Shown here piece after piece: positions 36,149-64,000 of a stretch of 64,000 nucleotides of DNA. The stretch's first letter is position 1. Each line of letters begins with the position of its first letter. Below the pieces are notes generated by a model. The model was not told the origin of the DNA. It saw only the letters and a program-made list of their open reading frames with translations, and did no database searches. The stretch is from an uncultured virus (IMG/VR IMGVR_UViG_3300031539_000018) (Duplodnaviria > Heunggongvirae > Uroviricota > Caudoviricetes), in IMG/VR virus record IMGVR_UViG_3300031539_000018, positions 1 through 64,000 of that record, one strand, 5' to 3'. Both the position numbers and the translations under genes were made by a program.

Positions 36149-36174
36149 GGCGAAATCTGAATGGAGGTTAGGAA

Positions 36175-38066: not shown

Positions 38067-38093
38067 CAAACGACTATTCTTGGAGGTATTCAC

Positions 38094-38366: not shown

Positions 38367-38399
38367 GAACTGATCTAACTGATAGGAGGTACTTCTGAC

Positions 38400-40325: not shown

Positions 40326-40336
40326 GGGGAAAGGAT

Positions 40337-41701: not shown

Positions 41702-41709
41702 GAGAAATT

Positions 41710-42234
41710 GTGCCCTTTGACCCCATGACTACCGGCCCTGCATATCAGGGTTGGGCGATAGATTTCCTGAACCCGCGGATTGAACCACACTTCCGCGCCT
41801 TCGAGTGGGGTAGCGGCTGGAGCACCATCTGGCTGGGCGCACGGTGCGGGAGCGTAGTCAGTGTCGAGCATGATGTGGAGTGGCACGCGACGGCGGCGCA
41901 GCGGTTGCGGGAGTATGGCCTGGGGAACGTGAAGCTGTTCCACATACCAAAGGAACAGGGCGCGTCGGAGTATGCGGACTATGCCGATGCCATCCTGAGT
42001 TATCCTGATGAGCACTTTCACCTGATTTGCGTGGACGGGCGCAATCGTGCAGGGTGCATCAGGAACGCTATGGTGAAGTTGGTGAGGCCCGGTGGGATGA
42101 TGGTGGTGGATGACTACCCCAGGTCGCAGTATCAACCTGCTCTGCGGTTATTGGATGGCTGGAGCCGGGCGTTGTTCAACCGGGCTAGTGAGATCATGGC
42201 TACGGGCGTGTGGTTCAGGCCAACGGAGGGGTGA
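41710..42234 (+). CDS. SAM-dependent O-methyltransferase
   Basis: FEWGSGWSTIW, SVEHD, ICVDGRNR, GGMMVVDD. Confidence 0.85.
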   Translation: MPFDPMTTGPAYQGWAIDFLNPRIEPHFRAFEWGSGWSTIWLGARCGSVVSVEHDVEWHATAAQRLREYGLGNVKLFHIPKEQGASEYADYADAILSYPDEHFHLICVDGRNRAGCIRNAMVKLVRPGGMMVVDDYPRSQYQPALRLLDGWSRALFNRASEIMATGVWFRPTEG

Positions 42235-42235
42235 G

Positions 42236-42985
42236 ATGACCCTTTTCGCTCATACTCACTGCGTAGCGTTTGAGCTTTCCAACACTTGCCCTTACGCATG
42301 GCTGCACAAGGAGTGTCCCTTGAACTTGGAAGTGGCCTCACCCTTTCGGTTGAGGGAGACAAAGCACCTATCTGGCGACGTTGTGCGGAAGGTACTGGAT
42401 ACCCTGGGAGAGCATGGGTACGTGAGCACGATTAGCTTTCATCAGTACAATGAGTCGCTAGTTGACCCACGCCTGTTCGAGTTCGTCCGCTATGCTAGGA
42501 AGCGGTGCCCGGAGGCCAGGATCATAATCTTGACCAACGGGGTTTTCCTGTCGCGGCAATTGGCGCTGGAGCTGGAGGAGGCCGGGTTATCGGGTCTGTG
42601 GGTGACGCTCTATGGCAGCCAGGAGGACCGCAAGATCACATGGGAATGGATGAAACGTGAGATCATACCCATCTTTTCAGAGAGCAATGTTCAGACGTGG
42701 GGGCTGGATGACAGGCTGTGCATTTATGACCGGGAGTACCAGAAGGACCAGGGCGGCAATTGTTATGCCCCCTTGAGTGCTATCATCGTCACCAGGGACG
42801 CGGAGTGGGGCCTGTGTTGTATGGACTGGAAACGCACAGTATCCTTCGGGAGCCTCAAGGAGCATAGCCTGGAGGAACTGTTACAGGCTGAGGAGCCGCA
42901 TCGCATCTATGCGGCCCTGAGCGAGGGGGACCGGACGGTATTGGATTTGTGCCGCCGCTGCACGTTCGCTATCACACCAAGGTGA
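42236..42985 (+). CDS. radical SAM protein with SPASM/twitch-like domain (atypical cluster motif)
   Basis: FELSNTCPYAWLHKECP, YNESLVDP, LTNG, C-terminal CYAP...CCMD...CRRC. Confidence 0.8.
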   Translation: MTLFAHTHCVAFELSNTCPYAWLHKECPLNLEVASPFRLRETKHLSGDVVRKVLDTLGEHGYVSTISFHQYNESLVDPRLFEFVRYARKRCPEARIIILTNGVFLSRQLALELEEAGLSGLWVTLYGSQEDRKITWEWMKREIIPIFSESNVQTWGLDDRLCIYDREYQKDQGGNCYAPLSAIIVTRDAEWGLCCMDWKRTVSFGSLKEHSLEELLQAEEPHRIYAALSEGDRTVLDLCRRCTFAITPR

Positions 42986-42987
42986 AT

Positions 42988-43021
42988 CTTTTGCTGGCAA
43001 AAGGAAGCGGCGTGGTATCAT
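42988..43021 (+). promoter_or_regulatory. phage-specific promoter motif
   Basis: CTTTTGCTGGCAAAAG; TATCAT at 43016-43021. Confidence 0.55.
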
Positions 43022-43040
43022 TTGTGCAGAAGGAAGGTTA

Positions 43041-44219
43041 ATGGAGCCGCGGGGCATTCTCTACTTTGCAATAGGTGACGAATATCTGATGCGGGCGCAG
43101 AAGGCTGTAGCTCGCGTGCGGGATGTGTGGCCGGGTATGGCCTGCGCCATCTGGACCGAACGCTCGCCGGGGCCGGTGATGCTCTCGCGGATGGAGGCCT
43201 GGCGGCAATCACCTTTTGAGCGGACCTTGGCTCTGGATGCGGACGTATGGCTGGCGGAACCTGTACCAGAGCTGTTTGACCTGTTGGACCGGTTTGACCT
43301 GGCGGCGACCCTTGCGCCATGGCGTGAGGGACATCCTGTAGCTGTCCCTGCGGCGTTTCCAGAGCATAACTGTGGCGTGGTAGCCTTTCGCAAGAATGGC
43401 CTGTTACTGAGCCTTGTGGACGACTGGGAGCAGCGGTTCGGACGACGTTATGAGGGGTTGGAGGAGACCAAAAGCGTTCACAATGACCAACCGGCCTTCC
43501 GGGAGGCCCTGTATCATTCTGTTCTGCGTATTGCTACCTTGCCCGCGGAATACAACTGGCGGGGCGTGGGCTATGTTTGGGGCAAGGTGAAAGTGTTGCA
43601 TACCCGGAGACCGCCACAGAGGGTAGCACACGAAATCAACGAGCAGCTTGGGCCAAGGGTGTGTATGAACTGGCAGATACACCATGGAGATAATTCGGCA
43701 ATGATGCTGGAAGCGACCGACCTTACAGGTGAGGAATATCACCACGAGGTGGAGGACGTGCTTACGTTGCAGCACCTGGCGGGGCTGCTCCCGGCGGACC
43801 CGGTGGTGGTGAACATCGGGGCCTGCTTCGGCACATCGGCCTTGGCGCTCCTGGAGGCCCGTGAGGACCTGTTTGTGTTCAGCATTGACATCAAGCCTTG
43901 CCTTGAGGAGCGGGAGAACCTGGCGCGGTCGGGCGTGGACCCGGCGCGGTGCGTGCGGGTGCTGGGGCGGTCTCAGGAGGTCGGGCAGTATTGGCCGCGT
44001 GCGGTGGATATGGTTTTCATGGACGGTTCCCATGCCCGCTCTGACGTGGTGGCGGACCTGGAGGCCTGGCTGCCCCGAATCAAGCCGGGGGGTATCGTGG
44101 CCTGCGACGACTATGCGAAAGGGTGCACTCCGGCGGTGAAGCCTGTGGTGGATGAGATGCTGATGGACAAGTACGAGATGGTCCTTCACGTGGGGGACAT
44201 CGTGGCGTTCAGGGTGTAA
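43041..44219 (+). CDS. GT-A (GT8-like) glycosyltransferase - methyltransferase fusion
   Basis: SPFERTLALDAD, NCGVV, NDQPAF, LPAEYN, then VNIGACFG, MDGSH, GGIVACDDY. Confidence 0.85.
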   Translation: MEPRGILYFAIGDEYLMRAQKAVARVRDVWPGMACAIWTERSPGPVMLSRMEAWRQSPFERTLALDADVWLAEPVPELFDLLDRFDLAATLAPWREGHPVAVPAAFPEHNCGVVAFRKNGLLLSLVDDWEQRFGRRYEGLEETKSVHNDQPAFREALYHSVLRIATLPAEYNWRGVGYVWGKVKVLHTRRPPQRVAHEINEQLGPRVCMNWQIHHGDNSAMMLEATDLTGEEYHHEVEDVLTLQHLAGLLPADPVVVNIGACFGTSALALLEAREDLFVFSIDIKPCLEERENLARSGVDPARCVRVLGRSQEVGQYWPRAVDMVFMDGSHARSDVVADLEAWLPRIKPGGIVACDDYAKGCTPAVKPVVDEMLMDKYEMVLHVGDIVAFRV

Positions 44220-44228
44220 AGGGGGATT

Positions 44229-44435
44229 ATGAGAGACATCGCTGTGGACTTGGGTATAGTCGCGCCGTGCGGGTGCATCTTCCCACAACATATCTGCAAG
44301 GAAGCGAAGCACCTTTGGGCCAGAGCCGTGGCATTCTTCGAGAAGAGCAGGGAGGCCGGATTTGATGATGAGTCTTGGGCCAAGTATCTGGAGGTCCTGG
44401 AGGACTATAAGAAGCACTTTGGCAGGGAGGTATGA
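44229..44435 (+). CDS. hypothetical protein
   Basis: Short ORF in the operon. Confidence 0.4.
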   Translation: MRDIAVDLGIVAPCGCIFPQHICKEAKHLWARAVAFFEKSREAGFDDESWAKYLEVLEDYKKHFGREV

Positions 44436-44438
44436 CCA

Positions 44439-44669
44439 ATGCCCGAAGACAAAGAGGAAGCAAGAGAGGAAACGCTGGAGCAGTTGGGGCTCCGGTACTT
44501 GGCCGCGCAGGAGCAACGTCTGCGGGTCTGCCAGCGCGAGAAGGCCCTAAAGAAGGAACTTGCAGCGGCTATGCGAGATGCCGGGAAGGAAGCCGTGATA
44601 GTGGGGCCGAAGGTGGTGATTTTGCACCCCGGTATAGATTATGACAGTCTGGAAGTGGCAGACCTGTGA
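44439..44669 (+). CDS. hypothetical protein
   Basis: SD GGAGGT; coiled-coil-like. Confidence 0.5.
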   Translation: MPEDKEEAREETLEQLGLRYLAAQEQRLRVCQREKALKKELAAAMRDAGKEAVIVGPKVVILHPGIDYDSLEVADL

Positions 44670-45478
44670 TGAACGAACAGCAACTCAAAGACGCCTTTGC
44701 ATCACTGGAGCCGATGAGTGACGAGGCCCCGCCCCGGTACACGTGGGAGCGGCACAGGTGGGAGATGCGGCGCCATGTGCGTCGGGATCCCATCGCGGTA
44801 TTCCTGAGCTGGCCCACGGTGACGGCCACCATGTTTGCGGGGGAGACCCCCTTCATCCGGTCTGAGCTGGAGGCCCTGCGGGCGCAGCCTGATTGGGAGA
44901 CCCTTTGGCTTCCGGCCATTGAGGACAGCGGCGTGGGCCAGGCCCCGAGGATGTCAGGGGAGCCGTCTACGAACGCCAATATGGTGCATCAGGCGTTTCA
45001 CCTGATGATGTGGAACAAGGCTACGCTCAAGGAACTGCGGGATCTGGAGACCATCACGGAGTTCGGCGGGGGCTATGGGGCTATGGCCCTGATTGCCTCA
45101 CGGCTGGGGTTCCGCGGGACCTACCGGATGGTGGACTTTCCGGAGATGTGCCTGCTTCAGAGCTACTACCTGTCGCGGCATGAGCTGGGCTGTGCGGTGG
45201 AGTTCCTGGAGGCCATCGGGCCGCCACGTTCGGACCTGTTGGTGGCCTGTTATTCATTGAGTGAAGTCCCGTTGGCGGACCGTAAGCCCTACCTTGGCGG
45301 GGGCCGTACGGATCATGGAGCGGCCAGTTACCTCTTTGCCATGCAGGACCGTTGGGATGACGTGGACAACCTGGATTGGGTATATGATTTTGAGATGAAT
45401 GAGAGGGATGACCTGCTGTGGTCCATCTTCCCGATGGTGAGGCCGGGGCACTGGTACGCGATGGGGGGAATGAAGTGA
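44666..45478 (+). CDS. putative sugar O-methyltransferase
   Basis: EFGGGYG, VDFPEM..LQSYYL, ACYSLSE. Confidence 0.8.
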   Translation: MMNEQQLKDAFASLEPMSDEAPPRYTWERHRWEMRRHVRRDPIAVFLSWPTVTATMFAGETPFIRSELEALRAQPDWETLWLPAIEDSGVGQAPRMSGEPSTNANMVHQAFHLMMWNKATLKELRDLETITEFGGGYGAMALIASRLGFRGTYRMVDFPEMCLLQSYYLSRHELGCAVEFLEAIGPPRSDLLVACYSLSEVPLADRKPYLGGGRTDHGAASYLFAMQDRWDDVDNLDWVYDFEMNERDDLLWSIFPMVRPGHWYAMGGMK

Positions 45479-47757
45479 CCTATGATTCATTTCTTAAATC
45501 GAAGAGGATGATTAGGCGTGATCGGGGCAAAGAGTTTACTACCGATGACGTGCATTCTAAGCTGTTTGCTTTCCAGCGGGATATTACGCTCTGGGCAGTA
45601 CGGAAGGGCATGGCAGCGGTATTCGCTGATACCGGGCTGGGCAAGACCTTCATTCAATTGGAATGGGCCAGGTTGCTAGGGGAGAAAACGCTCATTATTG
45701 CCCCGCTCAGTGTGGCCAGGCAAACGGTAAGAGAAGCTCGCAAGATTGATCTTGAAATAGGTTATGTTCGTAGTCAAGATGCGGTTGTGGGCGACGGTCA
45801 GCTCTGGATAACGAACTATGAAATGGTGAACGCCTTTGATGTATCGGCATTCGGCGCGGTGGTGCTGGACGAATCCAGTATATTGAAATGCATCTCAGGC
45901 AAGACGCGCCGCAAGCTGACGGAGGCTTGTCAGGCTGTTCCCTATCGCCTGTGTTGCACAGCAACGCCTGCCCCGAATGACTTCATAGAGCTGGGCAATC
46001 ATGCGGAGTTTTTGGGCGTGTGTTCGCGTGCTGAGATGCTGGCTATGTTCTTCGTCAATGCTAACAAAGAGCATACTATGTTTGTCAATGGAAAGTCGTA
46101 TCGCAGGAAGGGGAGCAATAAGGGCGGCCAGGAGTGGCGGTTGAAGCACCATGCCGAAGAGCCTTTCTTCCGCTGGTTGGCATCTTGGGCTATGGCCATA
46201 CGGAAGCCGTCTGACTTGGGATATGACGATATGGATTTCAGACTTCCTGCACTTAGGCTGCATAAGCACTTTGAGCAGGCGAAGTATGAGCCGGGTGATA
46301 GGCTGTTTTTCACTCGCGCTAGGGGTATAAGGGAGCATTCGGCTATTCGTAGAGCGACGCTTGGCCCACGCCTTGAACGGCTTCAGGAGATCATTGACGG
46401 AGACGGCCAACAGTGGATAGTCTGGGTGGGGCTGGATGAGGAAGGCCGGGCTGCGACGGAGGCTCTGGACGGTGCGGTAGAAGTCAAGGGTAGTGATTCG
46501 CCTGACTACAAGGCCAGTTCCTTTGAGGACTTTCAGGATGGCAAGTTTCGTGTGCTTGTGACCAAACCTACTATCGGCGGGTTCGGCATGAACTTCCAGA
46601 ATGCCCACAAGATGGCGTTCCTGGGGCTTTCGCACTCGTGGGAACAATACTATCAGTGTGTGCGCAGGGAGTGGAGGTATCTTCAGGAGCACCCTGTAGA
46701 CGTGCACCTGATTATGTCGGATATCGAGGCTGATGTGTACCGCAACGTGATGCGTAAGGATGCCCAGGCCAGGCGGCTACGGGAAGGTTTGATTGGCAAG
46801 ATGCATCTTTATGAGAGGGAGGAATTGGGGATGGGAACGTCTGTAGTGCAAGATCAGGCAGGATGTGTTGTCAAAGGCAATACTTGGAAAGCGTTGCGGG
46901 GCGACTCCTGCGAGAGGCTGGCGGAACTTGACAATGATTCGGTAGACCTGTGCATATACTCACCGCCGTTTGCTGATCTCTATACGTATAGTGATAGCCC
47001 CCGCGACCTGGGCAATTCGCGTGATTGGAAGGAGTTCTTGTGTCACTATTCTTTTGTGATCCGGGAGGTTTTGCGTGTAGTCAAGCCGGGGCGCTTGTGC
47101 TGCGTTCACACCTCAGACATCCCGGCGTTGGCGCAGAAGGATGGGTATATCGGCATCAAGGATTTTCCTGGCGCGGTGATCGCTGCGCACGAGGCGGAGG
47201 GATGGGTATTCCATGGACGCATTCTAGTCGGCAAAAACCCGCAGGCCCAGGCCATACGGACGCACTCTAAGGCGCTGTTGTTTGTCCAGTTGCGTAAGGA
47301 CTCAGCGGACAGTCGCCCGGCGCTTGTCGATCATGTTCTGTTGTTCAAGAAACCCGGTGAGAACGCTGTGCCGGTGACTCCGGTAGAAAACGGTGAGATG
47401 GACAATGACCTATGGGTACAGTGGGCTAATGGGATCTGGACTGATATTCAGGAGACGGATACTCTTCAGTACCAGCACGCGCGGGAGGCCGATGATGAGA
47501 AGCATATTTGCCCCTTGCAATTGCCGACGATCCGGCGGTGCGTGATGCTCTATTCCAATCCTGGAGAGACAATACTATCACCGTTTGCGGGCATCGGTAG
47601 TGAGGGTTTTGAGTCTGTCAAGGCCGGGCGGGGTTTCGTGGGTATAGAGCTGAAACCAGAGTATTTCGAGGTCATGGTCGGAAACCTCCAGAAAGCGGAG
47701 GCTGTAGCGAATCAGCCTGATTTGTTTTCGTTAGTCAATGAGGAGTCAGCGCAATGA
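45475..47757 (+). CDS. SNF2-like helicase - N4/N6 DNA methyltransferase fusion
   Basis: DTGLGKT, LDES, TAT, GFGMNFQ, QCVRR helicase motifs, then YSPPF and SPFAGIGS methylase motifs. Confidence 0.9.
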   Translation: MTYDSFLKSKRMIRRDRGKEFTTDDVHSKLFAFQRDITLWAVRKGMAAVFADTGLGKTFIQLEWARLLGEKTLIIAPLSVARQTVREARKIDLEIGYVRSQDAVVGDGQLWITNYEMVNAFDVSAFGAVVLDESSILKCISGKTRRKLTEACQAVPYRLCCTATPAPNDFIELGNHAEFLGVCSRAEMLAMFFVNANKEHTMFVNGKSYRRKGSNKGGQEWRLKHHAEEPFFRWLASWAMAIRKPSDLGYDDMDFRLPALRLHKHFEQAKYEPGDRLFFTRARGIREHSAIRRATLGPRLERLQEIIDGDGQQWIVWVGLDEEGRAATEALDGAVEVKGSDSPDYKASSFEDFQDGKFRVLVTKPTIGGFGMNFQNAHKMAFLGLSHSWEQYYQCVRREWRYLQEHPVDVHLIMSDIEADVYRNVMRKDAQARRLREGLIGKMHLYEREELGMGTSVVQDQAGCVVKGNTWKALRGDSCERLAELDNDSVDLCIYSPPFADLYTYSDSPRDLGNSRDWKEFLCHYSFVIREVLRVVKPGRLCCVHTSDIPALAQKDGYIGIKDFPGAVIAAHEAEGWVFHGRILVGKNPQAQAIRTHSKALLFVQLRKDSADSRPALVDHVLLFKKPGENAVPVTPVENGEMDNDLWVQWANGIWTDIQETDTLQYQHAREADDEKHICPLQLPTIRRCVMLYSNPGETILSPFAGIGSEGFESVKAGRGFVGIELKPEYFEVMVGNLQKAEAVANQPDLFSLVNEESAQ

Positions 47758-49019
47758 TCTTTTCCAATCGTCACGAGGTGGAGACACACCTGGCTGAGCA
47801 GGCTGACGGCGGCGTGATTGTAGAGGTTGGGGTGGGCAAGGGTGACGGGTTGGTGGCCCTGCTCAACGGCACCCGTTACGGAAGGCTCTTGCCCGTGTAT
47901 GCCGTGGATCCCTACGCGCCATACGTGGACAAATTGGGTGGCACCTACGGCCCGGAGTGCAAGCAGGAAGCCGTCGATCAGGTGGTGGGTACGGGCCTGG
48001 GGCGTTTGGTGGCCTTCGTCGAAGAGGACGGCGTGCTGGTGGGCGAGAATTGGGACTTGCCTACGGCCCTGGTGTGGATTGACGTGTCTATGGAGTACGA
48101 CGGTCTCAAATGCGTCTGGGATGCCTGGGCGGACAAGGTTATGGAGGACGGGCACATCGCCATCGCGGGGCTGGGTTACAGTAGCTTGGGCACGGCGCGG
48201 GTGATGCAGGAGGCCGTGGACTCAGGGAACTTCGTGCGGGTACTGGAGGGGCAAGACCGGGTGGCCGTGCTGCGCAGGAATCCACGGCACAGGAGGGCCG
48301 CGTTCTACATCGTGGATGGTGAGCCGTATGCAGATGAGGCGGCCTATAGCGCGTCCAGCCTCAAGGAGCACATGCCCAGGGTGGAGACCTTCCTGTTCGC
48401 TGTGGGGGGCACGAAGGACAGGGATTGCATTGACCACGTAGTGACGTTGCCCCCTCGGGAGAGCGAACTGTGGTACCTGGACAGCACGCGGTACTTCAAT
48501 TGGGCTGTGGGGCAGCTTCATGAGTACAACCGGCTCTTGTACCTTGATACGGATACGTGGGTGTCCTGGGATTGCCTGGATATGTGGTGGCTCCTGGAGC
48601 AGTTCGACGTGTGCCTGGGTCATTCTGCGGGCCGGGAGGCCATGCCCAGTGCTATCGGAACGCCGCCTGCGTTCACCACGCTGTCCATCGGGGTGAGCCT
48701 CTTCTGCAACAACGCGAAGGTCCGGGCCACACTGGCGGACTGGCAGGCATTCTATGAGAAGTACGCGCATATCTACGGCGACAATGACGAGTCGCCCCTG
48801 CGGGACGTGCTGTGGCTCAACCGTCACGGGCTGAAAATGTATATCCTGCCCCCGGAGTACAATGCGCGTGTGGGCTTCGGGTGCTGGCTCTATGGGCGGG
48901 TCCGGGTAGTCCATGCCCGGCTGCCCCGGCTTCGGCATGTGGCGGAGGAGCTGAATGAGCACACGGTCATGCGCATGTGGCGTCCTGATGATGGGTTCCT
49001 GTGGTATCACCAGAAGTGA
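47754..49019 (+). CDS. methyltransferase - GT-A (GT8-like) glycosyltransferase fusion
   Basis: IVEVGVGKG, YAVDPY, then LYLDTDT, NDESPL, LPPEYN. Confidence 0.8.
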   Translation: MIFSNRHEVETHLAEQADGGVIVEVGVGKGDGLVALLNGTRYGRLLPVYAVDPYAPYVDKLGGTYGPECKQEAVDQVVGTGLGRLVAFVEEDGVLVGENWDLPTALVWIDVSMEYDGLKCVWDAWADKVMEDGHIAIAGLGYSSLGTARVMQEAVDSGNFVRVLEGQDRVAVLRRNPRHRRAAFYIVDGEPYADEAAYSASSLKEHMPRVETFLFAVGGTKDRDCIDHVVTLPPRESELWYLDSTRYFNWAVGQLHEYNRLLYLDTDTWVSWDCLDMWWLLEQFDVCLGHSAGREAMPSAIGTPPAFTTLSIGVSLFCNNAKVRATLADWQAFYEKYAHIYGDNDESPLRDVLWLNRHGLKMYILPPEYNARVGFGCWLYGRVRVVHARLPRLRHVAEELNEHTVMRMWRPDDGFLWYHQK

Positions 49020-49026
49020 GGGGGAC

Positions 49027-49770
49027 GTGAGCGACGGCTGCGGGCGGTTCATAGGGCCATATCCTTGCTGCACCATCATCACGGGTGACGCTAAGGAGCT
49101 TACTCCGGCGATACCGGATGAGAGCGTGGACTTGATAGTGACTGACCCGCCCTACTTCTTGCCAGTTCAGTCCTATGTTGGGGTGCGTGGTGAGGGCTAT
49201 ACGAGGAGGACGCTGGCTGACACGTCGATACTTTCTGGATTCTTTGGGGATCTATTTGCGGATTTGGGCCGTGTTCTAAAGCAGACGGGAAGCGCCTATG
49301 TCTTCTGTGATGGGCAGAGTTACCCGCTGTTCTATCCAGCCATGTTTCCGCACTTCAAGTATGTGCGGCCCCTGATATGGGACAAGATTGTTTCCTACAA
49401 CGGATACACGTGGCGACACCAGCATGAGTTGATTGCGTGGGGCGAAGGAGTGGGGGCGCAGAGGGTTCCCACGGGCGATGGGGACATTCTGAGATGTAGG
49501 GGGGTTCTCCAGAAAGACAGAAGGCATCCCGCAGAAAAGCCACTCGCTCTATTGCAGCAACTCATAGCCAAGCATGAACGGGGGCGGGTTGTATTGGACC
49601 CATTTGTTGGCTCAGGGACCACCCCCATAGCCGCATGGCTAGAGGGCGATCACTACCTCGCCTTCGAGATAGACCCCGACGTAGCAGAGCGGGCGAGGGA
49701 GCGGGTGAGGAACACCCAGCCACCCCTCTTCGTGATGCAGCCAGAGCAGACAATACTAGAACTGGAATGA
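49027..49770 (+). CDS. N6-adenine/N4-cytosine DNA methyltransferase (beta class)
   Basis: TDPPY, HPAEKP, VLDPFVGSGTT. Confidence 0.92.
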   Translation: MSDGCGRFIGPYPCCTIITGDAKELTPAIPDESVDLIVTDPPYFLPVQSYVGVRGEGYTRRTLADTSILSGFFGDLFADLGRVLKQTGSAYVFCDGQSYPLFYPAMFPHFKYVRPLIWDKIVSYNGYTWRHQHELIAWGEGVGAQRVPTGDGDILRCRGVLQKDRRHPAEKPLALLQQLIAKHERGRVVLDPFVGSGTTPIAAWLEGDHYLAFEIDPDVAERARERVRNTQPPLFVMQPEQTILELE

Positions 49771-49780
49771 GGTGTAACCA

Positions 49781-50074
49781 ATGGATAGTAACGTACTCAC
49801 TCACAGCGCGGTGCTCCCAAGGCGCAACGTCAAGCGGCTGCGGCGTTGCCTGAACCCTCAATGCCTCTACGTGGCGGGCGGCGGCAAGATGCCTTTGAAG
49901 ATCACTCGCATTGGCGAGTATACCCGGCTTGGTTGCTCCAAGTGCGGGTCCGTAAGTGTGTTCAACCCGGTAGCGACGGTAAGGCCTGACAAGGCCAGGC
50001 ACATCTTCGTGGCTCGTGACCGTGGGGGCGTGGTGGAGCACATCTTCCCCAAGGCGAGGGTATTGGTACCGTGA
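49781..50074 (+). CDS. hypothetical Zn-ribbon protein
   Basis: CLNPQC...CSKC. Confidence 0.5.
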   Translation: MDSNVLTHSAVLPRRNVKRLRRCLNPQCLYVAGGGKMPLKITRIGEYTRLGCSKCGSVSVFNPVATVRPDKARHIFVARDRGGVVEHIFPKARVLVP

Positions 50075-50550
50075 GAAGGCGTTACTTCGAGTGGGACTAT
50101 GTCGCCAACAGGGTCATTGAGTGGGTGCGTGTGGGTACGTGCTGCCGGTGCGGTGCGTGTTGCCGGGGGTCCATCGGTTACAATTTCGAGAATGTTAAGA
50201 CGTACCATGCGAATAAGGCGGGCGGCTATTATACCACTGGCAGGGGTGTCTGGCAGGAGATCCGTGCGGGCCGGTATCGGCACTTTTTCCGGATGGAGTA
50301 CATGGCCGTGAAGGGGCGGGGGTGGTGTGGCAGTTTCGAGAATGGCCTTTGTGCTGAGTATGAGCATCGGTCCTGGATTTGCCGGGAGTGGCCCTTCTCG
50401 CCCCGGTGCATTGCGCCGTTTGCGGAGTGCACCTATGGGTTCCGTGAGGTAGACCGCTGGCCGTTCGTGGTGGATGTCCCCAAGGATCCGGCAAAAGAGG
50501 GGAAGGATGCTGGCGGTTTTGTTCATGTGCCGCGGAGAGGGGTCCCGTGA
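50071..50550 (+). CDS. YkgJ-like CxxCxxCC cysteine-cluster protein
   Basis: CCRCGACC...C...CAEYEHRSWICREWPF. Confidence 0.75.
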   Translation: MRRRYFEWDYVANRVIEWVRVGTCCRCGACCRGSIGYNFENVKTYHANKAGGYYTTGRGVWQEIRAGRYRHFFRMEYMAVKGRGWCGSFENGLCAEYEHRSWICREWPFSPRCIAPFAECTYGFREVDRWPFVVDVPKDPAKEGKDAGGFVHVPRRGVP

Positions 50551-51215
50551 TCACTAAGCGCCTGGTTTACATCCACGTCTTCCGGACCGGCGGGTACATG
50601 GTGCAGGGGGTCTTGCGAAAGGTCCCTGGCCTGGTGATGGTCTCTGACAGGCCCACGGAGCACCTCACCTATGCACAGATGACCACGGTATGCGCTCAGC
50701 AGCGCATGTCGAGGCCACTGGCTGCTGTGTTCGTTCGCAACCCGTTTGACTGGTACGTGTCGATGTGGTGCTGGGTCAATACGGCCCCGAATGTGCCTTC
50801 CTTCCCTAGCTTCCGGGCATACCTGGGGGCGATTGATGAGAGGCGCTTTGGCATCACGGGAACGGGGCGCAACTACAGCAGATTCACCGACCATTGGAAG
50901 GACATGGGTGCTGACTCAGCAAAGTGGACGGGACGTTTCGAGCGCCTGCAGGAGGACTTCGTGGCCATCATGCTGGAGGCCATGCCTGAACTGGTGAACG
51001 AGAAGATGCTGAGGCGCCTTATAGTCAAGGAACCCATCCATCACCCCAGCAGGCATCCCCAGACCGGCAAGCACCCAGGGGCCTATCAGCAGTACTACGA
51101 TGCGGAGACGAGGGCGCTGGTAGAGGGGTGGGACGGCGCGCTGTTGGAGCGCTTCGGCTACAATTTCGAGGGGGAGGAGGCGGATGATGAAGATTTATCC
51201 CATACCGGTGCCTGA
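50547..51215 (+). CDS. sulfotransferase family protein
   Basis: YIHVFRTGG, VRNPFDWYVS, GRFERLQEDF, YQQYYD, FGY. Confidence 0.82.
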   Translation: MITKRLVYIHVFRTGGYMVQGVLRKVPGLVMVSDRPTEHLTYAQMTTVCAQQRMSRPLAAVFVRNPFDWYVSMWCWVNTAPNVPSFPSFRAYLGAIDERRFGITGTGRNYSRFTDHWKDMGADSAKWTGRFERLQEDFVAIMLEAMPELVNEKMLRRLIVKEPIHHPSRHPQTGKHPGAYQQYYDAETRALVEGWDGALLERFGYNFEGEEADDEDLSHTGA

Positions 51216-52083
51216 CGAGTTCCGGCCTGCCAGTCAGGGCTATGCCATGCCGCCACACTGCCCGGTGGAGGGTTACGGCGTGGAGCAGGACTTCGACCTG
51301 TGGCTCCGGCAGCGCCCTACCATTCTGGCCCCAAGTATTGAGGAAGCTGATTGGTACTACCTACCGGTGTACTGGAATCGTCTTTTTATCGCTACCTGGA
51401 AGTGGGCTCAGGATGAGGCCGCTATTGAGCGGTGCACCCGGTATATCGAGGACCTCCGGGGGGCCTTGGACTTCTCGCGGGTGTTCACCGTCTGCGAGTG
51501 GGACCTGACCACGGAACGGCAGGAGATCGGGATTGGGGAGATGACCGTGCTCACGGCAGGGCGGCGGGACCACACGGGCATCGATGTCCCTTTGCTCTGC
51601 GCGCCCCATGGTGTCCCTCCCATGCAATATGCCAAGCGGCACCTGGCGTCGTTCGTGGGCAACGTCGGAACCTCCGGCTGGCGTCAGGCCATGCAGGAGG
51701 CCCTAGAGGTCTATGACGGGTGCCTGATTGAGCACGCGCAGAACGGTTCCGCCTACTTCCGGGACGTGATGACTGAGAGCTACGTAGCCCTGGCCCCCAG
51801 GGGGCACCGGGGTCAATCGTTCAGGTTCTACGAGGCCATGGACATGGGCGTGGCCCCGGTGCTGATCGGCGACATGGACACGCGGCCCTTCAAGAACTGG
51901 ATTGATTGGGACTCATGCTCGTACTACGTGCCTGACGCCTCGGAGTTGCCGGGGTTCCTAGACGGCCTTGATTTGGAGGACGCGCTTCGTCGCGGTGTAC
52001 GGGCGGCGCAGGTGTATCATGAGGAGCTGCGGTTTGGAAGGTGGTGCCGGTTCGTTGTGCCGGAGCTTTTGAGCGTGCCGTGA
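51184..52083 (+). CDS. exostosin-like (GT47) glycosyltransferase
   Basis: EEADWYYLPVY, LASFVG, ALAPRG..GQSFRFYEAMDMGVAPVLI, PF..WIDW. Confidence 0.85.
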   Translation: MMKIYPIPVPDEFRPASQGYAMPPHCPVEGYGVEQDFDLWLRQRPTILAPSIEEADWYYLPVYWNRLFIATWKWAQDEAAIERCTRYIEDLRGALDFSRVFTVCEWDLTTERQEIGIGEMTVLTAGRRDHTGIDVPLLCAPHGVPPMQYAKRHLASFVGNVGTSGWRQAMQEALEVYDGCLIEHAQNGSAYFRDVMTESYVALAPRGHRGQSFRFYEAMDMGVAPVLIGDMDTRPFKNWIDWDSCSYYVPDASELPGFLDGLDLEDALRRGVRAAQVYHEELRFGRWCRFVVPELLSVP

Positions 52084-56207: not shown

Positions 56208-57407
56208 GTGATGAAAGAGTACTCAATCTGGCAAGAGCAGACCTTAGCTGTAATGACGGCTATGCAGGCCAACGTGCCTGCGCTCATCTTAGGGGTGCCC
56301 GGCATCGCCAAGACGGCGTTCCTGAAAGCGGCTACGAAGGCCCTGGGATGGGATTTGTACGTGTTTATGGGCAGTATCCGGCAGCCCTCGGACATCATTG
56401 GCTACCTGGCCCCGGACTTGGAGCGCCGGGTGACTTTGGAGCTGCCCCTGGAGTGGGCGCGTAGCATCAGCGACCGCGCCACCGAGGGTCATGTGACTGT
56501 GGTGTTTCTTGAGGAGCTGACTACGGTGTTCCCTGCGATGCAGGCGGCACAACTCCGGTTCGTGCATGAGCGGTGCGTAGGCGATTGCTACCTTGGTGAT
56601 AGCACCCGCATTGTGGCGGCTGCGAACCCGCCGGAGATGGCCCCTGGGGGATTTCAACTGTCACCGCCTATGGCTAACCGGTTGCTGCATCTGGGGTGGC
56701 AGGAGGACGCGGCGCATTGGGCCGACAATATGCTGCTAGACTTCCCGGCCCCGGTGCTGCCTACGTTTGATGCGGCCAAGGCGGCGGAGTCCCGTGAGCG
56801 GTGGAAGGGGTTGATTTACGCCTACATCATGGGATACCGTCGGCAGCACTTGGTGGTCATGCCTGTGGATCGGGAGGGCCGTGTGGATGAGGAGAAGGCG
56901 TCTGGGCCGTGGGCCAGTGAGCGGTCCTGGTATGAGTACCTGCTGCCCTGTTTGTCCTGGCTGGATGCTGTGCGGGGCATCTCTAAGCAACTCTATGAGA
57001 GCGTGCGGGAGCGGTTGGCGGTGGGGTCTATTGGTGCAGTGGGTGCGGAGTTCCTTCTGTGGTCCGATAACCTGGACCTCACCTCGGCGGAGGACATGCT
57101 CAAGCAGGGGTCCAAGTACGTGGTGCCGGACCGCCAGGACAGGGCCTATGCGGAGCTGGCGAACCTGGCGATTTACGTGTCCGGCAAGAAGATCACGCCG
57201 AAGATTTGGGTAGCGGCCTGGAATGTATTTGCGGCTGCGGCGGACCAGGGCAAGACGGGCACGGCTGCGGCTGCGGCGCGGTCCCTAGCGTCCAAGGCCA
57301 GGGCTGACCTACCCCCGGTTTACGAACAGATAGCGCGGTTTCAACCTTTGCTGGAGCGTGCGAAGATGATACCGAAACTGGATGATGACGCGGCGATGGA
57401 ACTGTGA
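56208..57407 (+). CDS. MoxR-like AAA+ ATPase
   Basis: GVPGIAKT, VVFLEEL, IVAAANP, LSPPMANR. Confidence 0.88.
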   Translation: MMKEYSIWQEQTLAVMTAMQANVPALILGVPGIAKTAFLKAATKALGWDLYVFMGSIRQPSDIIGYLAPDLERRVTLELPLEWARSISDRATEGHVTVVFLEELTTVFPAMQAAQLRFVHERCVGDCYLGDSTRIVAAANPPEMAPGGFQLSPPMANRLLHLGWQEDAAHWADNMLLDFPAPVLPTFDAAKAAESRERWKGLIYAYIMGYRRQHLVVMPVDREGRVDEEKASGPWASERSWYEYLLPCLSWLDAVRGISKQLYESVRERLAVGSIGAVGAEFLLWSDNLDLTSAEDMLKQGSKYVVPDRQDRAYAELANLAIYVSGKKITPKIWVAAWNVFAAAADQGKTGTAAAAARSLASKARADLPPVYEQIARFQPLLERAKMIPKLDDDAAMEL

Positions 57408-57421
57408 GGAGGTAGGAGAAG

Positions 57422-58300
57422 ATGGGCAAGACGAGGATTGAGTGGGCTGATGAGAGCTGGAATCCAATCACGGGCTGCACCCATGCGGGTACTCCCGGCT
57501 GCGACAACTGCTATGCCCGGCGCATGGCACAGAGACTGGCGGGGCGGTTCGGGTATCCCGAGAAGCCACATCAGTTCGACGTGACGTTTCACCAGGACAA
57601 GCTGGATGAACCGCTGAGTTGGAGGAAGCCGAGAGTGGTGTTCGTGTGCTCGATGGGGGACCTGTTTCACCAGGATGTGACCTGGGAGCAGAGGGGCGAT
57701 GTGTGGCAGGCGATGTATGAGGCTCCACAGCATACCTTCTTGGTACTGACCAAGCGGCCAGCGGAGATGCGCGATTGGTTCATTGGCTATTGGCAAGAGG
57801 CAGTTGCGACCAGCGACGAGCTAATTCTATCCAACGTCTACCTCGGCGTCTCGGTCGAAACCCAAGACCAGATGTGGCGGGTCGAGGAGCTGGTCAAGAT
57901 ACCGGGCAAGCACTGGGTGAACTTCGGCCCGCTGTTGGGGCCCGTCACGATCCCCCCTGAGCTACTAGCACGACTTGCTGGCGCAGCCGTGGAGGGCGAA
58001 TCAGGGCCAGGGGCTAGGCCAATGCACCCCGACTGGGCACGAAACATCAGAGATCAATGCGTAGCAGCAGAGATTCCATTTTCGTTCAAGCAATGGGGGG
58101 AGTGGGGGCCAACTTCCTACGGTGGTTCCTATGAGCGCTATCACGCATTCACAAGACCACTACCGCCGGATCCTGCACGTATGATGGTTGAGGCTCAGGT
58201 ATACCGTGTTGGAAAGGCCCAGGCAGGCCGACTACTCGACGGGCAGCTCTGGAATCAGTGGCCGTGGGATGTGATAGGGGACATGGAGCATGGTGAGTGA
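57422..58300 (+). CDS. phage Gp37/Gp68 family (DUF5131) protein
   Basis: TRIEWADESWNPITGC...PGCDNCYA, FVCSMGDLFH, LTKRP, GESGPGARP, FKQWG. Confidence 0.92.
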   Translation: MGKTRIEWADESWNPITGCTHAGTPGCDNCYARRMAQRLAGRFGYPEKPHQFDVTFHQDKLDEPLSWRKPRVVFVCSMGDLFHQDVTWEQRGDVWQAMYEAPQHTFLVLTKRPAEMRDWFIGYWQEAVATSDELILSNVYLGVSVETQDQMWRVEELVKIPGKHWVNFGPLLGPVTIPPELLARLAGAAVEGESGPGARPMHPDWARNIRDQCVAAEIPFSFKQWGEWGPTSYGGSYERYHAFTRPLPPDPARMMVEAQVYRVGKAQAGRLLDGQLWNQWPWDVIGDMEHGE

Positions 58301-58565
58301 GGAAGAAATGAGGAAGATCATGAGGGGTGTGCAAGCCATCGGTCGAAATAATACGGGCGTGGAAGAGGCCGCTCAGCTCCTCGCCGAAGCGATGAAGGAA
58401 GATGTGGTGTACGAAAGCACAGGGGTTGCTGACTATGATGGATGCTGTGTTCGCCTGGGCTGTGGAACTGAGCTTATCTTAGGTCCTGATGATGAGTGGG
58501 ACATTCTTGACGGCCGGCAGTACCACGTGACCGTGACGGAAGAACCTACCAATGACCAACCGTGA
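58290..58565 (+). CDS. hypothetical protein
   Basis: Overlaps both neighbours. Confidence 0.5.
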   Translation: MVSEEEMRKIMRGVQAIGRNNTGVEEAAQLLAEAMKEDVVYESTGVADYDGCCVRLGCGTELILGPDDEWDILDGRQYHVTVTEEPTNDQP

Positions 58566-59913
58566 TGCTACTTTGGCGATGGACGCGGCAAGGGTGCGGC
58601 TCAACTATCTGCGTGGCTACCTTCGGGCTGTGTTGTGGACTATGCGCATGGTGCCCACTGGAGAGGTGCCCAGTATGGCTATGTCCAAGGACGCGGTGAT
58701 CTACTACAACCCGGAGGAGGTAGCCAAGTGGCCCTTGGAGGCCTGCGTGACGGTCCTGTACCATGAGGTGTGCCACTGGATGCGGCGTCACTATGAGCGC
58801 ATGGCAGACTTCCCGGACGAACAGTGCGCGCTCATTGCGGCGGAATTGGAACTCCAGGGTGACATCGAGGATGAGATCAACGGTGACTCGAATCTGGATT
58901 GGCCCCCACAGGGATACATTGCACCGGGCAAGCCGCCTTTCGAGAGCTTGCTCAAGGGCCTCCTGGCTGAGGAGTATTATCGACTTCTGGAGCGGCAACA
59001 GCAGCAATCCGGTGGCGCAGGGGGCCAGCAGCAGGGCAAGGGGCGGCAACAAGGTCAAGGCCAGGGGCAGAGTCAACAGGGGCAGAGTCAACAGCAAGGT
59101 AAGGGCCAAGGCAAGGGCCAGCAAGGTCAAGACCAGCAACCAGGCCAGGGCCAGGGTTCTGTGTCTGATGGGCACTGGAAGGACTGGGAGCAGCAGGACC
59201 ATCCGGAGGGCATCACTGAGGCCCAGGGGCGGCTCATTGCCCGCAAGCTGGCCCAGGACATCCAGGAGGCCGCGGAGCGTGATAAGTCGCAGCGGGGCAT
59301 CGGCTCAGTACCCGGCTGGATGAAGCGTTGGGCAGAGATGCAGCTTTACTCCAAGGTGCCCTGGTACAAGGTTCTAGACCGCTGGATACGTCAGTCCATT
59401 GGGCACGTCCTGGGGTTCTCAGACTACTCATTCAGGACACCGAACCGTAGGGCTGCGTTGAGCGGCCTCATCCTGCCGGGTTTGGTGAAGCCTGTGCCGA
59501 GGATCGCTGTGGTTCTGGACACATCAGGGTCCATGTCCGGTCATCAGGTTGGGTTGGCCCTCACGGAGATTGGCGGCGTGCTCAGGGCTATGGGGATGCT
59601 GGAGGGCGTGTGGGTACTGGCTACGGATGCGGAGGCCCATACCTGCCAGCGTGTGTTCAATCCCCGCCAGGTGGACGTTGTGGGCGGTGGGGGAACCATC
59701 CTGGAGTCGGGCATTGCACGAGCCATGAAGCTGCGGCCCCGGCCTGAGATCGTGGTCGTCATCTCGGACTGCCTGAACTATTGGGATGAGGTCAAGCCTG
59801 CCAGGGTGAGCATCGTGATCGTGCGTGTGGGCACGGGCAAGCCGCCTACGTGGGCCGACAAGGTGATTGACGTGGAGGATGTGGTAGAGGACTGGACGGT
59901 GTGGACAAGATGA
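58552..59913 (+). CDS. DUF2201-type metallopeptidase + vWA domain protein
   Basis: HEVCH zincin motif; Q/G linker; DTSGSM MIDAS; GGGGT. Confidence 0.88.
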   Translation: MTNRDATLAMDAARVRLNYLRGYLRAVLWTMRMVPTGEVPSMAMSKDAVIYYNPEEVAKWPLEACVTVLYHEVCHWMRRHYERMADFPDEQCALIAAELELQGDIEDEINGDSNLDWPPQGYIAPGKPPFESLLKGLLAEEYYRLLERQQQQSGGAGGQQQGKGRQQGQGQGQSQQGQSQQQGKGQGKGQQGQDQQPGQGQGSVSDGHWKDWEQQDHPEGITEAQGRLIARKLAQDIQEAAERDKSQRGIGSVPGWMKRWAEMQLYSKVPWYKVLDRWIRQSIGHVLGFSDYSFRTPNRRAALSGLILPGLVKPVPRIAVVLDTSGSMSGHQVGLALTEIGGVLRAMGMLEGVWVLATDAEAHTCQRVFNPRQVDVVGGGGTILESGIARAMKLRPRPEIVVVISDCLNYWDEVKPARVSIVIVRVGTGKPPTWADKVIDVEDVVEDWTVWTR

Positions 59914-62220: not shown

Positions 62221-62226
62221 TGCTTT

Positions 62227-62260
62227 CTTTTGCTCCCAAAAGGTTTTAGCGATCTATAAT
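62227..62260 (+). promoter_or_regulatory. phage-specific promoter motif upstream of tnpB
   Basis: CTTTTGCTCCCAAAAG; TATAAT at 62255-62260. Confidence 0.6.
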
Positions 62261-62282
62261 GAGTGAGTGAAGTAAATGAGGC

Positions 62283-62311
62283 TTGACAAACCGGAAGGAA
62301 TCTGCTATACT
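62283..62311 (+). promoter_or_regulatory. sigma70-type promoter of tnpB
   Basis: TTGACA (62283-62288), 17 nt, TATACT (62306-62311) with extended TG. Confidence 0.82.
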
Positions 62312-62316
62312 GATAA

Positions 62317-62408
62317 TGCTACAGGTGCGGCGTGGTTGTTTTGTTATAGAAGGGGTCATGCAGGCCACGCGCACCTGTAGCGGGACGCAAGGCAATGTGT
62401 GACCCCTT
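62317..62408 (+). ncRNA. putative structured leader RNA (hairpin + pseudoknot), copy 2
   Basis: Stem 62317-62337 / 62363-62382; loop segment 62350-62362 complementary to 62396-62408; covaries with the copy at 449-548. Confidence 0.55.
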
Positions 62409-62420
62409 TGACATAAGGCG

Positions 62421-63632
62421 ATGATTGTACAGAAGAGCCATAGGATACAACTGAGACCCAACAATGAGCACCGAAGCGGTTTCAACCGCTGGGTTGGTGC
62501 TTACCGTTGGACTTACAACTGGGCGCTAGAACAGAAGAAGACAGCCTATGAGCAAGAGGGCAAGTCACTGAGTAAGTACGGTGTGCAGAAACTCTTGACT
62601 ATTGAGAAACACACGCTGGAAAGGGCGTGGCTCAATGATATCCTGCGAGACACGCTTGTCAATGCAATATGGAACATGGACAGGGCATACCAGAACTTCT
62701 TCCGGCGGGTCAAGAATGGAGAGGCCAAAAAGGGTTTCCCAAAGTTCAAGTCAAGACGGACGGCGCGGCGCGTTTTCCACGTCACGGCGTACCTCGTGCA
62801 ATTGAGCGAAGACCGACGGAGCGTCAAGTTGCCTAAACTTGGATGGGTTAGGATGAGCAAGGCCCTGCGATTTGAGGGCAAGATGGTTGGGACAGTGGCT
62901 GTCAGTGAAGAGGCGGGGCGGTGGTATGCATCCTTCGTCGTTGAGACTGAGATACCCGATCCTCCGGATCGTAGTGCTGACCCTGTGGTGGGCATCGACG
63001 TCGGTATCAAAACGCTAATGACGCTTTCTGATGGGAAGCGATATGAGAATCCGAAGGCTACCTATGAGCTAGAGAAGCTACTGGCGCGGTCACAGCGCCA
63101 ACTATCCTGCAAGACTAAGGGGAGTAAGCGGCGGGCTAGGGCAAAGCTGAGAGTCCAGCGGATACAGAAGCGGATCAAGGATGTGCGGGTAAATGCGGCA
63201 CATCAAGCCACGGCGGAGGTGACTAGGGACTACGGCCTCGTAGCTATGGAGGACTTGAATGTCAAAGGCATGGTCAAGAATCGTCACTTGGCAAAGGCCG
63301 TGTCAGACTCCAATTTCAATCGGTTGCGCCAGCAGTTGACGTACAAGACCGCGTGGAGCGGCAGTAAACTGAGGCTCGTGGACCGTTGGTTCCCGTCCAG
63401 CAAGCTGTGCTCTGAGTGCGGTTGCATCAATGATAATCTGACACTTTCAGATAGGAGGTGGACTTGCGATTGTGGGGCTGTTCATGACAGGGACCTAAAC
63501 GCTGCCCAGAATATTCTAGCGGCGGCGCTAAAGTTGGCCGACGAATCGGCGGTCACTGGGCGTGGAGGGATAGGGGCCTCAAGTCCTCCCGATGAAGCGT
63601 CAAGCGGGCAGCAGGAGGTGATAGATGCATAA
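62421..63632 (+). CDS. tnpB: TnpB-family RNA-guided endonuclease (IS200/IS605/IS607 OrfB; Cas12 ancestor)
   Basis: N-terminal HTH (RIQLRPN...RWTYNWAL), GFPKFKS, RuvC I VGIDVG, RuvC II MEDLNV, Zn finger CSECG/CDCG, RuvC III HDRDLNAAQNI. Confidence 0.95.
   Translation: MIVQKSHRIQLRPNNEHRSGFNRWVGAYRWTYNWALEQKKTAYEQEGKSLSKYGVQKLLTIEKHTLERAWLNDILRDTLVNAIWNMDRAYQNFFRRVKNGEAKKGFPKFKSRRTARRVFHVTAYLVQLSEDRRSVKLPKLGWVRMSKALRFEGKMVGTVAVSEEAGRWYASFVVETEIPDPPDRSADPVVGIDVGIKTLMTLSDGKRYENPKATYELEKLLARSQRQLSCKTKGSKRRARAKLRVQRIQKRIKDVRVNAAHQATAEVTRDYGLVAMEDLNVKGMVKNRHLAKAVSDSNFNRLRQQLTYKTAWSGSKLRLVDRWFPSSKLCSECGCINDNLTLSDRRWTCDCGAVHDRDLNAAQNILAAALKLADESAVTGRGGIGASSPPDEASSGQQEVIDA
63537..63603 (+). ncRNA. putative omega-RNA scaffold core overlapping the tnpB 3' end
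   Basis: Hairpin GCCGA/TCGGC; GGCGTGGAG...hairpin...GATGAAGCGTCAA arrangement recalled from tnpB 3' ends; boundaries uncertain. Confidence 0.5.
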
Positions 63633-63691
63633 GACCCGCAACCCCGAATTGACGGGGTCCTCATTCGCGTGGGCAATGGCTATTGTGAAGG

Positions 63692-63969
63692 GTGCACCCC
63701 ATGCGCATGTGGGGGATTCGCGCAGATGCGGGTCTGAAACGACGACCCCAAACGTGCACCCCATGCGCATGTGGGGGATTCGTACGGCAAGTATTGCCAG
63801 AAGCCGCAGAAACCCGTGCACCCCATGCGCATGTGGGGGATTCGTTGGCCCTGTGCTTGCGGCTGCGCAGGACGAAGTGCACCCCATGCGCATGTGGGGG
63901 ATTCGTCAAATGACAAGCGATTGCACGCCAGCATACGTGTACCCCATGCGTATGTGAGGGGGGGATTCG
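63692..63969 (+). CRISPR. CRISPR array: 4 identical 29-nt repeats + 1 degenerate, 4 spacers
   Basis: GTGCACCCCATGCGCATGTGGGGGATTCG at 63692, 63754, 63816, 63877; degenerate copy 63937-63969; unique spacers of 33, 33, 32 and 31 nt. Confidence 0.95.
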
Positions 63970-64000
63970 GTGGAGACTAAATGAGCGAACCCTATGATGT

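Follow-up and report, generated by a model that had tools for sequence, protein, structure and literature searches.

The window analysed here is a stretch of 64,000 nucleotides (nt) from an uncultured tailed virus (Caudoviricetes), bases 1-64,000 of the 69,345-bp IMG/VR record IMGVR_UViG_3300031539_000018, referred to below as phage X. A cassette spanning 62264 to about 63970 contains a gene for the nuclease TnpB, the omegaRNA overlapping the 3' end of this gene, and a CRISPR mini-array (short palindromic repeats that are clustered and regularly interspaced). A sister phage, phage Y, has a closely related cassette at the same locus. The RNA anatomy, as read from sequence, fits an intermediate between a transposon nuclease and a type V CRISPR system.

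Architecture of the cassette

The cassette comprises the following features, all on the plus strand.

62283-62311, plus strand: promoter of the sigma-70 type, lying within the cassette and matching 11 of 12 consensus positions with 17-nt spacing
62314-62423, plus strand: structured 5' leader of tnpB
62421-63632, plus strand: tnpB, 403 amino acids (aa), IS607-related lineage
63537-63658, plus strand: omegaRNA scaffold, ending in a hairpin at 63641-63658
63537-63550, plus strand: omegaRNA 5' hairpin, whose loop at 63542-63545 (or 63541-63546 with the inner pair open) complements the repeat at its 3' end
63659-63673, plus strand: anti-repeat, predicted to enter the terminal stem of the omegaRNA as its 5' arm (repeat:anti-repeat 2)
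63674-63691, plus strand: conserved 18-nt linker with a small hairpin, between the anti-repeat and repeat 1, presumed leader-repeat junction
63692-63969, plus strand: CRISPR mini-array of five type I-E-like repeats and four spacers
63721-63753, plus strand: spacer 1, predicted guide of an in-cis single RNA
63845-63876, plus strand: spacer 3

Four identical 29-nt repeats start at 63692, 63754, 63816 and 63877, and a fifth, degenerate copy lies at 63937-63969, distal to tnpB. Spacers 1-4 are 33, 33, 32 and 31 nt long. The repeat periods are 62, 62, 61 and 60 nt in phage X and 63 and 61 nt in phage Y, and in its hairpin repeats of 29 nt, recurring about every 61 nt, the array has the type I-E shape. 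As stated in a preliminary description of this DNA, the array begins 59 nt after the tnpB stop codon and its degenerate repeat is the distal one, an arrangement that recurs in phage Y. The same description saw no room in the gap for a normal AT-rich leader. Its reading of the gap is corrected here: the 59 nt hold the 3' part of the omegaRNA and the anti-repeat.

No cas or tnpA family was detected among 68 of the 71 open reading frames (ORFs) of at least 90 aa scanned in the 69,345-bp record, a length filter that a short cas2 could escape, which bears out the reported absence of both from the window. Cas genes just beyond the window, named earlier as a possible source of the array, were found neither in the rest of the record nor in phage Y, where 85 of 88 ORFs were scanned for cas families and no tnpA was seen either.

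The TnpB protein and its lineage

Pfam domains HTH_OrfB_IS605, OrfB_IS605 and TNB are found in the 403-aa protein. Its RuvC triad (D193, E277, D358) is complete and its zinc finger retains four cysteines (C330, C333, C349, C351), the second pair spaced CxC, so that the nuclease is as intact as first described. The NCBIfam model guided_TnpB is matched at 294.7 bits against a cut-off of 100. The IS607_TnpB (251 bits) and IS200_TnpB (320 bits) models both score below their cut-offs, and those for Cas12f2 and C2c8 far below. PADLOC matches to Cas12f and Cas12u4 (E 3e-78), for which no cut-off is set, were read as general TnpB likeness.

Residues 1-383 are collinear with ISDra2 TnpB, and a Cas12-like (REC/WED) expansion is lacking. 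A structure model (mean predicted local distance difference test score, pLDDT, 86.8) resembled ISDra2 TnpB (8h1j) and ISFba1 TnpB (8iaz) with query template modelling scores (TMq) of 0.80 and 0.76, followed by LaTranC (0.67) and AsCas12f (0.63-0.65). The tail at residues 377-403 is predicted to be disordered, which is attributed to the overlap of its coding sequence with the omegaRNA. By this model the phage X protein is a structurally plain TnpB.

A FastTree phylogeny of 201 proteins places phage X, phage Y and P0002-P0010 together in a clade of 11 tips (support 1.0), nested in a 63-tip clade (support 1.0) that includes two array-less loci, L093 and L153. The L093 locus, a 52% relative, has a tnpA of the MerR-resolvase/serine-recombinase type upstream of tnpB; a family scan of ORFs found no tnpA in phage X or phage Y. 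The tnpA beside L093 points to an IS607-type lineage, though neither NCBIfam IS model passed its cut-off. The independent transition from TnpB to Cas12 that was proposed for this locus is upheld within the 201-protein tree as far as independence goes; the protein itself lacks the expansion that Cas12 would imply.

The omegaRNA and its junction with the array

The scaffold was delimited by alignment with the array-less L153 and L093. The Rfam match to Transposase-2 is weak (63594-63660, E 0.04, below the gathering score). Within the scaffold, the stem pair 63575/63585 changes from G-C to C-G in a diverged variant contig. An early idea that the omegaRNA stops after the hairpin at 63641-63658 and is followed by a variable guide was dropped because the sequence after 63658 is conserved.

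In the array-less L153 and L093 the scaffold is followed by a terminal stem and a short tail. In phages X and Y the native end is predicted to have been replaced, the anti-repeat forming the 5' arm of the terminal stem and repeat 1 its 3' arm. The anti-repeat:repeat duplex has a predicted energy of -23.1 kcal/mol in phage X, matched by 115 of 41,456 background windows, and of -30.7 kcal/mol in phage Y, matched by none of the 41,456. The mean probability of pairing between the anti-repeat and repeat 1 is 0.88 in phage X and 0.98 in phage Y, and the hairpin of repeat 1 itself is predicted to stay unfolded in cis (probability at most 0.03). The linker differs by one change in phage Y, and P0006-P0008 encode a comparable stretch in their read-through tails.

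A second helix, repeat:anti-repeat 1, is predicted as a pseudoknot, in which the loop 63541-63546 can pair with the last five bases of the repeat. The same kind of pairing between loop and 3' end is seen in the array-less L153, L042 and L072. Across five array loci picked from independent lineages (phage X and four others), the pairing of each loop with its own repeat end was the best of 120 permutations. The loop lies within the tnpB ORF, where it encodes DES(A/T), a motif confined to P0001-P0009 (9 of 62 clade proteins, that is 9 of 10 subclade matches and 0 of the 52 others). Many sister-clade proteins have xGS at this position, which would fit an ancestral omegaRNA tail.

Both helices have counterparts in described systems. 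In ISDra2 the last scaffold bases pair with an upstream segment at -105 to -103, and the equivalents of this pseudoknot and of the last stem in Cas12f are its two repeat:anti-repeat helices (PMC10097598). The pseudoknot of an IS607 IStron has its halves in stem-loop SL2 and at the 3' end, and cleavage is described as requiring both the pseudoknot and the last stem-loop (PMC13521648).

Arrays at related and other tnpB loci

The association with an array is conserved in the clade, as documented by DNA from two phages and one variant contig from run X3, a third variant, which continues through repeat 1. At the protein level, P0008 (70% identity) has a read-through tail that agrees with the translation of the window from anti-repeat through linker to repeat and contains another repeat-like peptide 20 residues further on; P0006 and P0007 read through the anti-repeat. 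These tails suggest arrays behind the P0006-P0008 loci. Array linkage among close homologues, suggested earlier as a check, is thus borne out, and the link between TnpB and array is supported as real and as specific to the subclade.

Among 261 distinct tnpB loci, 247 of them with at least 500 nt of downstream sequence, repeat matches lay near nine, six of which are CRISPR-like (phage Y, L010, L014, L116, L125, L192). The array-finder matches at L218, L231 and L233 were rejected as tandem duplications. Four other array lineages are distant in the tree (distances 1.9-2.5), which indicates separate captures, and in each of them an omegaRNA scaffold precedes the array.

In L010 (4734-4990), a separate lineage, a phage tnpB with 42% identity has an omegaRNA scaffold and three I-E-like repeats on its upstream side, and the loop matches the repeat end. 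In L014 (6161-6410) a phage tnpB is accompanied by a shortened scaffold and three I-E-like repeats; its spacer 2 matches its own locus at 4758, 240 nt before tnpB, with 4 mismatches in 32, which suggests, at the level of sequence, targeting of sister phages. At the phage loci L125 (3598-3970) and L116 (2250-2480), the region upstream of tnpB contains a promoter, a scaffold, an anti-repeat and repeats of 37 nt, with a perfect 5-bp match between loop and repeat end. In L192 (7151-7530), on an Abditibacterium chromosome, tnpB, scaffold, a clear anti-repeat and three I-E-like repeats are found.

Boundaries and mobility of the cassette

Two features flank the cassette.

62244-62263, plus strand: 20-nt spacer/-10 part of a phage promoter-family motif, in the left flank outside the cassette, recurring elsewhere in the phage
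63981-64000, plus strand: start of the phage dnaB helicase gene, which runs to contig position 65294 and forms the right flank

The ORF starting at 63981, singled out earlier for inspection, is therefore the DnaB helicase gene, the next gene 3' of the array. The gene order around the cassette is the same in the independent assembly L006 as in the window.

Searches with the repeat and with the protein retrieved the same three IMG/VR records. One of them, G001 (143,142 bp, rated 100% complete), has a cassette at each of two sites separated by 73,797 bp. It appears to be a chimera in which phages X and Y (about 70 kb each) are joined through the shared tnpB cassette, because 143,142 minus 73,797 is 69,345, the size of the phage X record. 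The cassette of phage Y is 97.3% identical to that of phage X from 62264 through repeat 1 and lies at the same locus, where the flanking genes are 72-76% identical; this difference suggests that the cassette moved recently. The phage Y array has three repeats, the distal one degenerate, and two spacers that differ from those of phage X, from which we infer that spacers turn over at the tnpB end.

Further evidence came from Logan contigs in four of six listed soil runs, which possibly belong to one campaign and possibly include the source sample. A cassette-less allele, with a joint from 62263 to 64030, was present in 4/4 soil runs (depth 108, 78, 6 and 5); the joint is known from its ends and marks an allele without anything cassette-like between the flanks. 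The last repeat of phage Y is followed by 20 nt that agree with X 62244-62263 at 17 of 20 positions and with the left junction of Y at 15 of 20. The junction 20-mers of X and Y that resemble this terminal flank are each preceded by a motif ending in GG. The terminal flank of Y could be an ancestral homing guide or a repair duplication.

The promoter inside the cassette is conserved in the array-less L153 and L036 (the window positions 62283-62311 correspond to 4284-4312 in the locus numbering, L001). The leader has a folding z-score of -3.69 (1 of 200 shuffles as stable) and aligns with the leaders of L153 and L036; no Rfam family matched it. Promoter and leader together (window 62283-62423; L153 3830-4005; L036 4840-5005) are kept among tnpA-less phage tnpB elements of 39-52% protein identity, and may represent an undescribed left-end or regulatory RNA with a pseudoknot. 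The promoter-like motif of the phage is repeated at window 62223-62260 and contig 65810-65847, and weakly near 32249.

Spacer matches

Spacers 1 and 3 each occurred with non-repeat flanks in 4/4 soil runs. In three of the four a single contig joins them (joint 5756-5877, opposite strands) at depths of 292, 118 and 54, above the cassette depth in the same runs (about 120, 10 and 11). For spacer 1, loose ends were found before L001 5722 in 4/4 runs and behind 5756 in run X3; spacer 3 matches a non-array contig from its second base, on the opposite strand. In the same soils, one co-occurring element carries matches to both spacer 1 and spacer 3, and the suggestion that the spacers are directed against competing elements has gained this much.

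Other searches returned nothing comparable. Within the genomes of phages X and Y no spacer matched with fewer than 10-11 mismatches, which indicates that the two phages do not target each other. In IMG/VR, 18-19-nt seeds of spacers 1 and 3 and of Y spacer 1 were found in array copies only. Among named phages and plasmids the array had no match, one match at E 0.8 being taken as chance.

Proposed mechanism and alternatives

We consider it probable that a TranC-like TnpB is loaded with scaffold-plus-repeat RNAs to cut competing DNA, and that a host type I-E Cas1-Cas2 writes the spacers. The cassette would be mobile among related tailed phages as a TranC-like transposon-CRISPR intermediate, in which a single promoter would drive tnpB, the overlapping IS607-type omegaRNA and the array. 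The omegaRNA would have lost its own 3' end and gained a captured type I-E-like repeat in its place. In vivo, the repeat body and the anti-repeat would fold into the terminal stem, and the last bases of the repeat and the 5'-hairpin loop into the pseudoknot. With repeat 1 in both helices, scaffold, repeat 1 and spacer 1 would make a natural single guide, and the scaffold may also serve later repeat-spacer units, after processing, as a tracrRNA (trans-activating CRISPR RNA). Loaded with such guides, TnpB would cut competing mobile DNA, new spacers would enter at the tnpB end through host I-E Cas1-Cas2 in trans, and the sequence after the last repeat may be an old homing guide against cassette-less alleles.

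This reading is favoured because the scaffold aligns with those of array-less relatives up to the terminal stem and is replaced there by anti-repeat and repeat 1; because the anti-repeat duplex lies above background, strongly so in phage Y; and because the cognate loop pairing was the best of its permutations, the loop motif being confined to the subclade. The sister cassette with other spacers, the spacer-matched element and the intact triad argue in the same direction, as does the requirement for pseudoknot and terminal stem described for IS607 omegaRNA, the two elements that match the Cas12f repeat:anti-repeat helices (PMC13521648; PMC10097598).

Several points weigh against the proposed mechanism. 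The spacers match at 85% likeness among the matches listed, so that the matches may be inexact, and that of spacer 3 leaves out its first base. No motif is common to the 5' flanks of the two targets, and neither flank ends in GG, the typical end of an IS607 target-adjacent motif (TAM) (PMC13565253; 10.1101/2023.11.20.567912; PMC11061315), or has an adjacent AAG, which counts against a simple TAM model. Repeat searches of genomes, a Chloroflexota scan and DnaB homologues yielded no host and no host Cas1-Cas2. The DNA context comes from two phages and one contig, the 68-87% relatives being known as proteins. The best duplex over the whole 131-nt scaffold does not exceed shuffles in phage X (126 of 500 as good; in phage Y 1 of 500), and the repeat is palindromic, so that a decayed direct copy would resemble an anti-repeat. 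The loci and the score of the permutation comparison were chosen after the pattern had been noticed. The pairing of loop and repeat end is weak in L192 (3 bp). A clear anti-repeat is lacking in L014, where 84 of 1000 background windows are as strong, and the automatic finder took another hairpin in two of five array-less controls (L093 and L036).

It is less likely, though still credible as a minority view, that the locus is a re-writable single guide, in which only the in-cis RNA of scaffold, repeat 1 and spacer 1 is used and downstream spacers are retired. The predicted in-cis pairing of 0.88-0.98, the linker of just 18 nt and the lack of a visible processing signal for a free tracrRNA agree with such use, against which stand the identity kept among repeats 2-4 and the continued match of spacer 3 to the live element that spacer 1 also matches.

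An array that feeds the type I-E complex (Cascade) of the host, with a homing TnpB as a passenger with its own guide, seems unlikely. Mini-arrays have been described in phages (PMC7515739; PMC11656645).

The length and shape of the repeat and its period of 60-63 nt resemble those of I-E arrays. Type I-E arrays combine a period of about 61 nt and 29-nt hairpin repeats with an 8-nt handle after the stem; here 6 nt follow the stem. The repeat had no match in 185,579 species genomes (near-exact pattern), in 401 genomes of Chloroflexota, a guess at the host (at most 3 mismatches), or in metagenome records other than the source contigs. The hairpin of repeat 1, predicted as unfolded in cis, speaks against this use as well, as do a post-scaffold sequence that is conserved and not a variable guide, and a loop that co-varies with the repeat end.

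We regard as improbable a use of CRISPR RNA (crRNA) alone, as in Cas12r, with a leader-repeat hairpin silencing repeat 1 as in Cas13 systems and a vestigial omegaRNA. Cas12r of Thermus phages has 29-bp I-E-like repeats and is described as working without a tracrRNA (bioRxiv 10.64898/2026.04.20.719267), and a block of the first repeat by leader-repeat hairpins is described for type VI systems (PMC13187072). However, Cas12r has 564 aa and a 15-bp gap, as against 403 aa without expansions here, the full scaffold is kept with a compensatory change, and in this geometry the newest spacer would be put out of use if repeat 1 were silenced.

Chance adjacency or an assembly artefact, to which the chimeric record G001 joined through tnpB might point, is largely refuted and very improbable, the scaffold-array junction being identical in both phages, in the assemblies of two samples and in Logan contigs, and arrays being found near only 5 of 260 other tnpB loci.

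Relation to known systems

Systems of this kind have already been published (TranC, CauTranC9, Cas12r). TranC intermediates derive from IS605 and IS607 TnpBs via omegaRNA splitting (PMC13565253), and share with the present locus a TnpB-sized nuclease, the lack of adaptation genes, a short downstream array and an IS605 or IS607 origin. Their omegaRNA is split into tracr-like and crRNA parts, as is predicted here; unlike in TranC, repeat 1 is here still tied in cis to the scaffold. CauTranC9 is unexpanded and phage-borne, like the phage X TnpB, and repeats of 32-38 bp are reported for TranC clades 3, 9, 11 and 20, as against 29 nt, I-E-like, here (bioRxiv 10.64898/2026.03.27.714800). LaTranC, the sole TranC compared, is distant from the phage X protein (E 2e-25, 22% identity), ISDra2 TnpB being closer. 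By its anatomy the locus probably works like a TranC, whether or not it belongs to a named clade.

Cas12r from the Thermus Lalka phages likewise is a phage TnpB-like nuclease with 29-bp I-E-like repeats and spacers of 31-33 nt, lies among replication genes with no cas1 or cas2 described, and is proposed to depend on host I-E adaptation and to target other mobile elements; it is described as crRNA-only, needing no tracrRNA, with an ARG protospacer-adjacent motif (PAM) (bioRxiv 10.64898/2026.04.20.719267). The phage X system differs from it in the 403-aa nuclease, the whole omegaRNA scaffold with anti-repeat and the lack of a shared PAM. The enlarged effector of Cas12f, Cas12n and Cas12r is not seen in the phage X TnpB.

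The TnpB-omegaRNA pairs of IS607 (CboTnpB; ISFba1, 8IAZ) and ISDra2 (8H1J) agree with the present one in fold, size, catalytic triad and an omegaRNA overlapping the end of the ORF, and their 5'-hairpin loop pairs with the 3' end, as predicted here. In contrast to them, the phage X locus lacks tnpA and is predicted to have a CRISPR repeat in place of the native 3' end. In the proposed mechanism its guide would be drawn from acquired spacers, and not from flanking DNA alone.

The V-U6 to V-U45 groups share TnpB, a short downstream array and no other cas genes described, and many are known from metagenomes only (PMC10691335); compared by description, the phage X clade may or may not belong to them. 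About 50 independent associations of TnpB with CRISPR have been inferred (PMC12669027; PMC10691335; the comparison literature also included PMC5039180). In the literature searched, no paper was found in which an I-E-like repeat forms the omegaRNA end of an unexpanded TnpB of the IS607 type, although the supplements of the TranC, Cas12r and V-U papers may list one.

Other features of the phage genome

Profile searches of the ORFs identified terminase, siphovirus tail and amidase genes in the phage X record. Its ends carry no end repeats, and the record may be incomplete. A search of DnaB homologues named no host.

A large glycosylation and modification block at window 15831-18467 and 33567-52083, common to phage Y, contains glycosyltransferases, an epimerase, a sulfotransferase, several methyltransferases, radical SAM and exostosin-like genes. 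At window 56208-59913 lie a MoxR-like AAA ATPase and a VWA/metallopeptidase (DUF2201) gene, with DUF5131 between them in phage X; in phage Y the two are adjacent. ARAGORN found no tRNA in the record and missed a tRNA-like element at L001 8076-8178 (contig 66075-66177), which scored 27.6 bits in Rfam, just below the gathering score.

Implications

How the guide RNA of a transposon becomes a CRISPR guide is an open mechanistic question, and at this locus an intermediate state is readable: the omegaRNA is whole, repeat 1 is predicted to be its 3' arm, and the ancestral end can be read from array-less relatives. The same soils hold two phages that differ in their spacers, an allele lacking the cassette and a spacer-matched element. 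As the kind of system is already published, the surprise is limited.

More tentatively, the locus may exemplify a general route from IS607 TnpB to type V systems. I-E repeat ends would already fit the pseudoknot loop and would have been captured repeatedly by phage TnpBs as a new 3' end, gaining the host Cas1-Cas2 as a guide writer, after which loop and repeat end would co-evolve away from Cascade. Here, an unexpanded 403-aa nuclease would attack a co-infecting element with acquired spacers and home into cassette-less sister phages with its last, ancestral guide.

The TnpB of phage X is a candidate for a very small multiplexable nuclease, and its cassette may record, in a natural setting, the recently described step by which a jumping gene turns into a CRISPR system.

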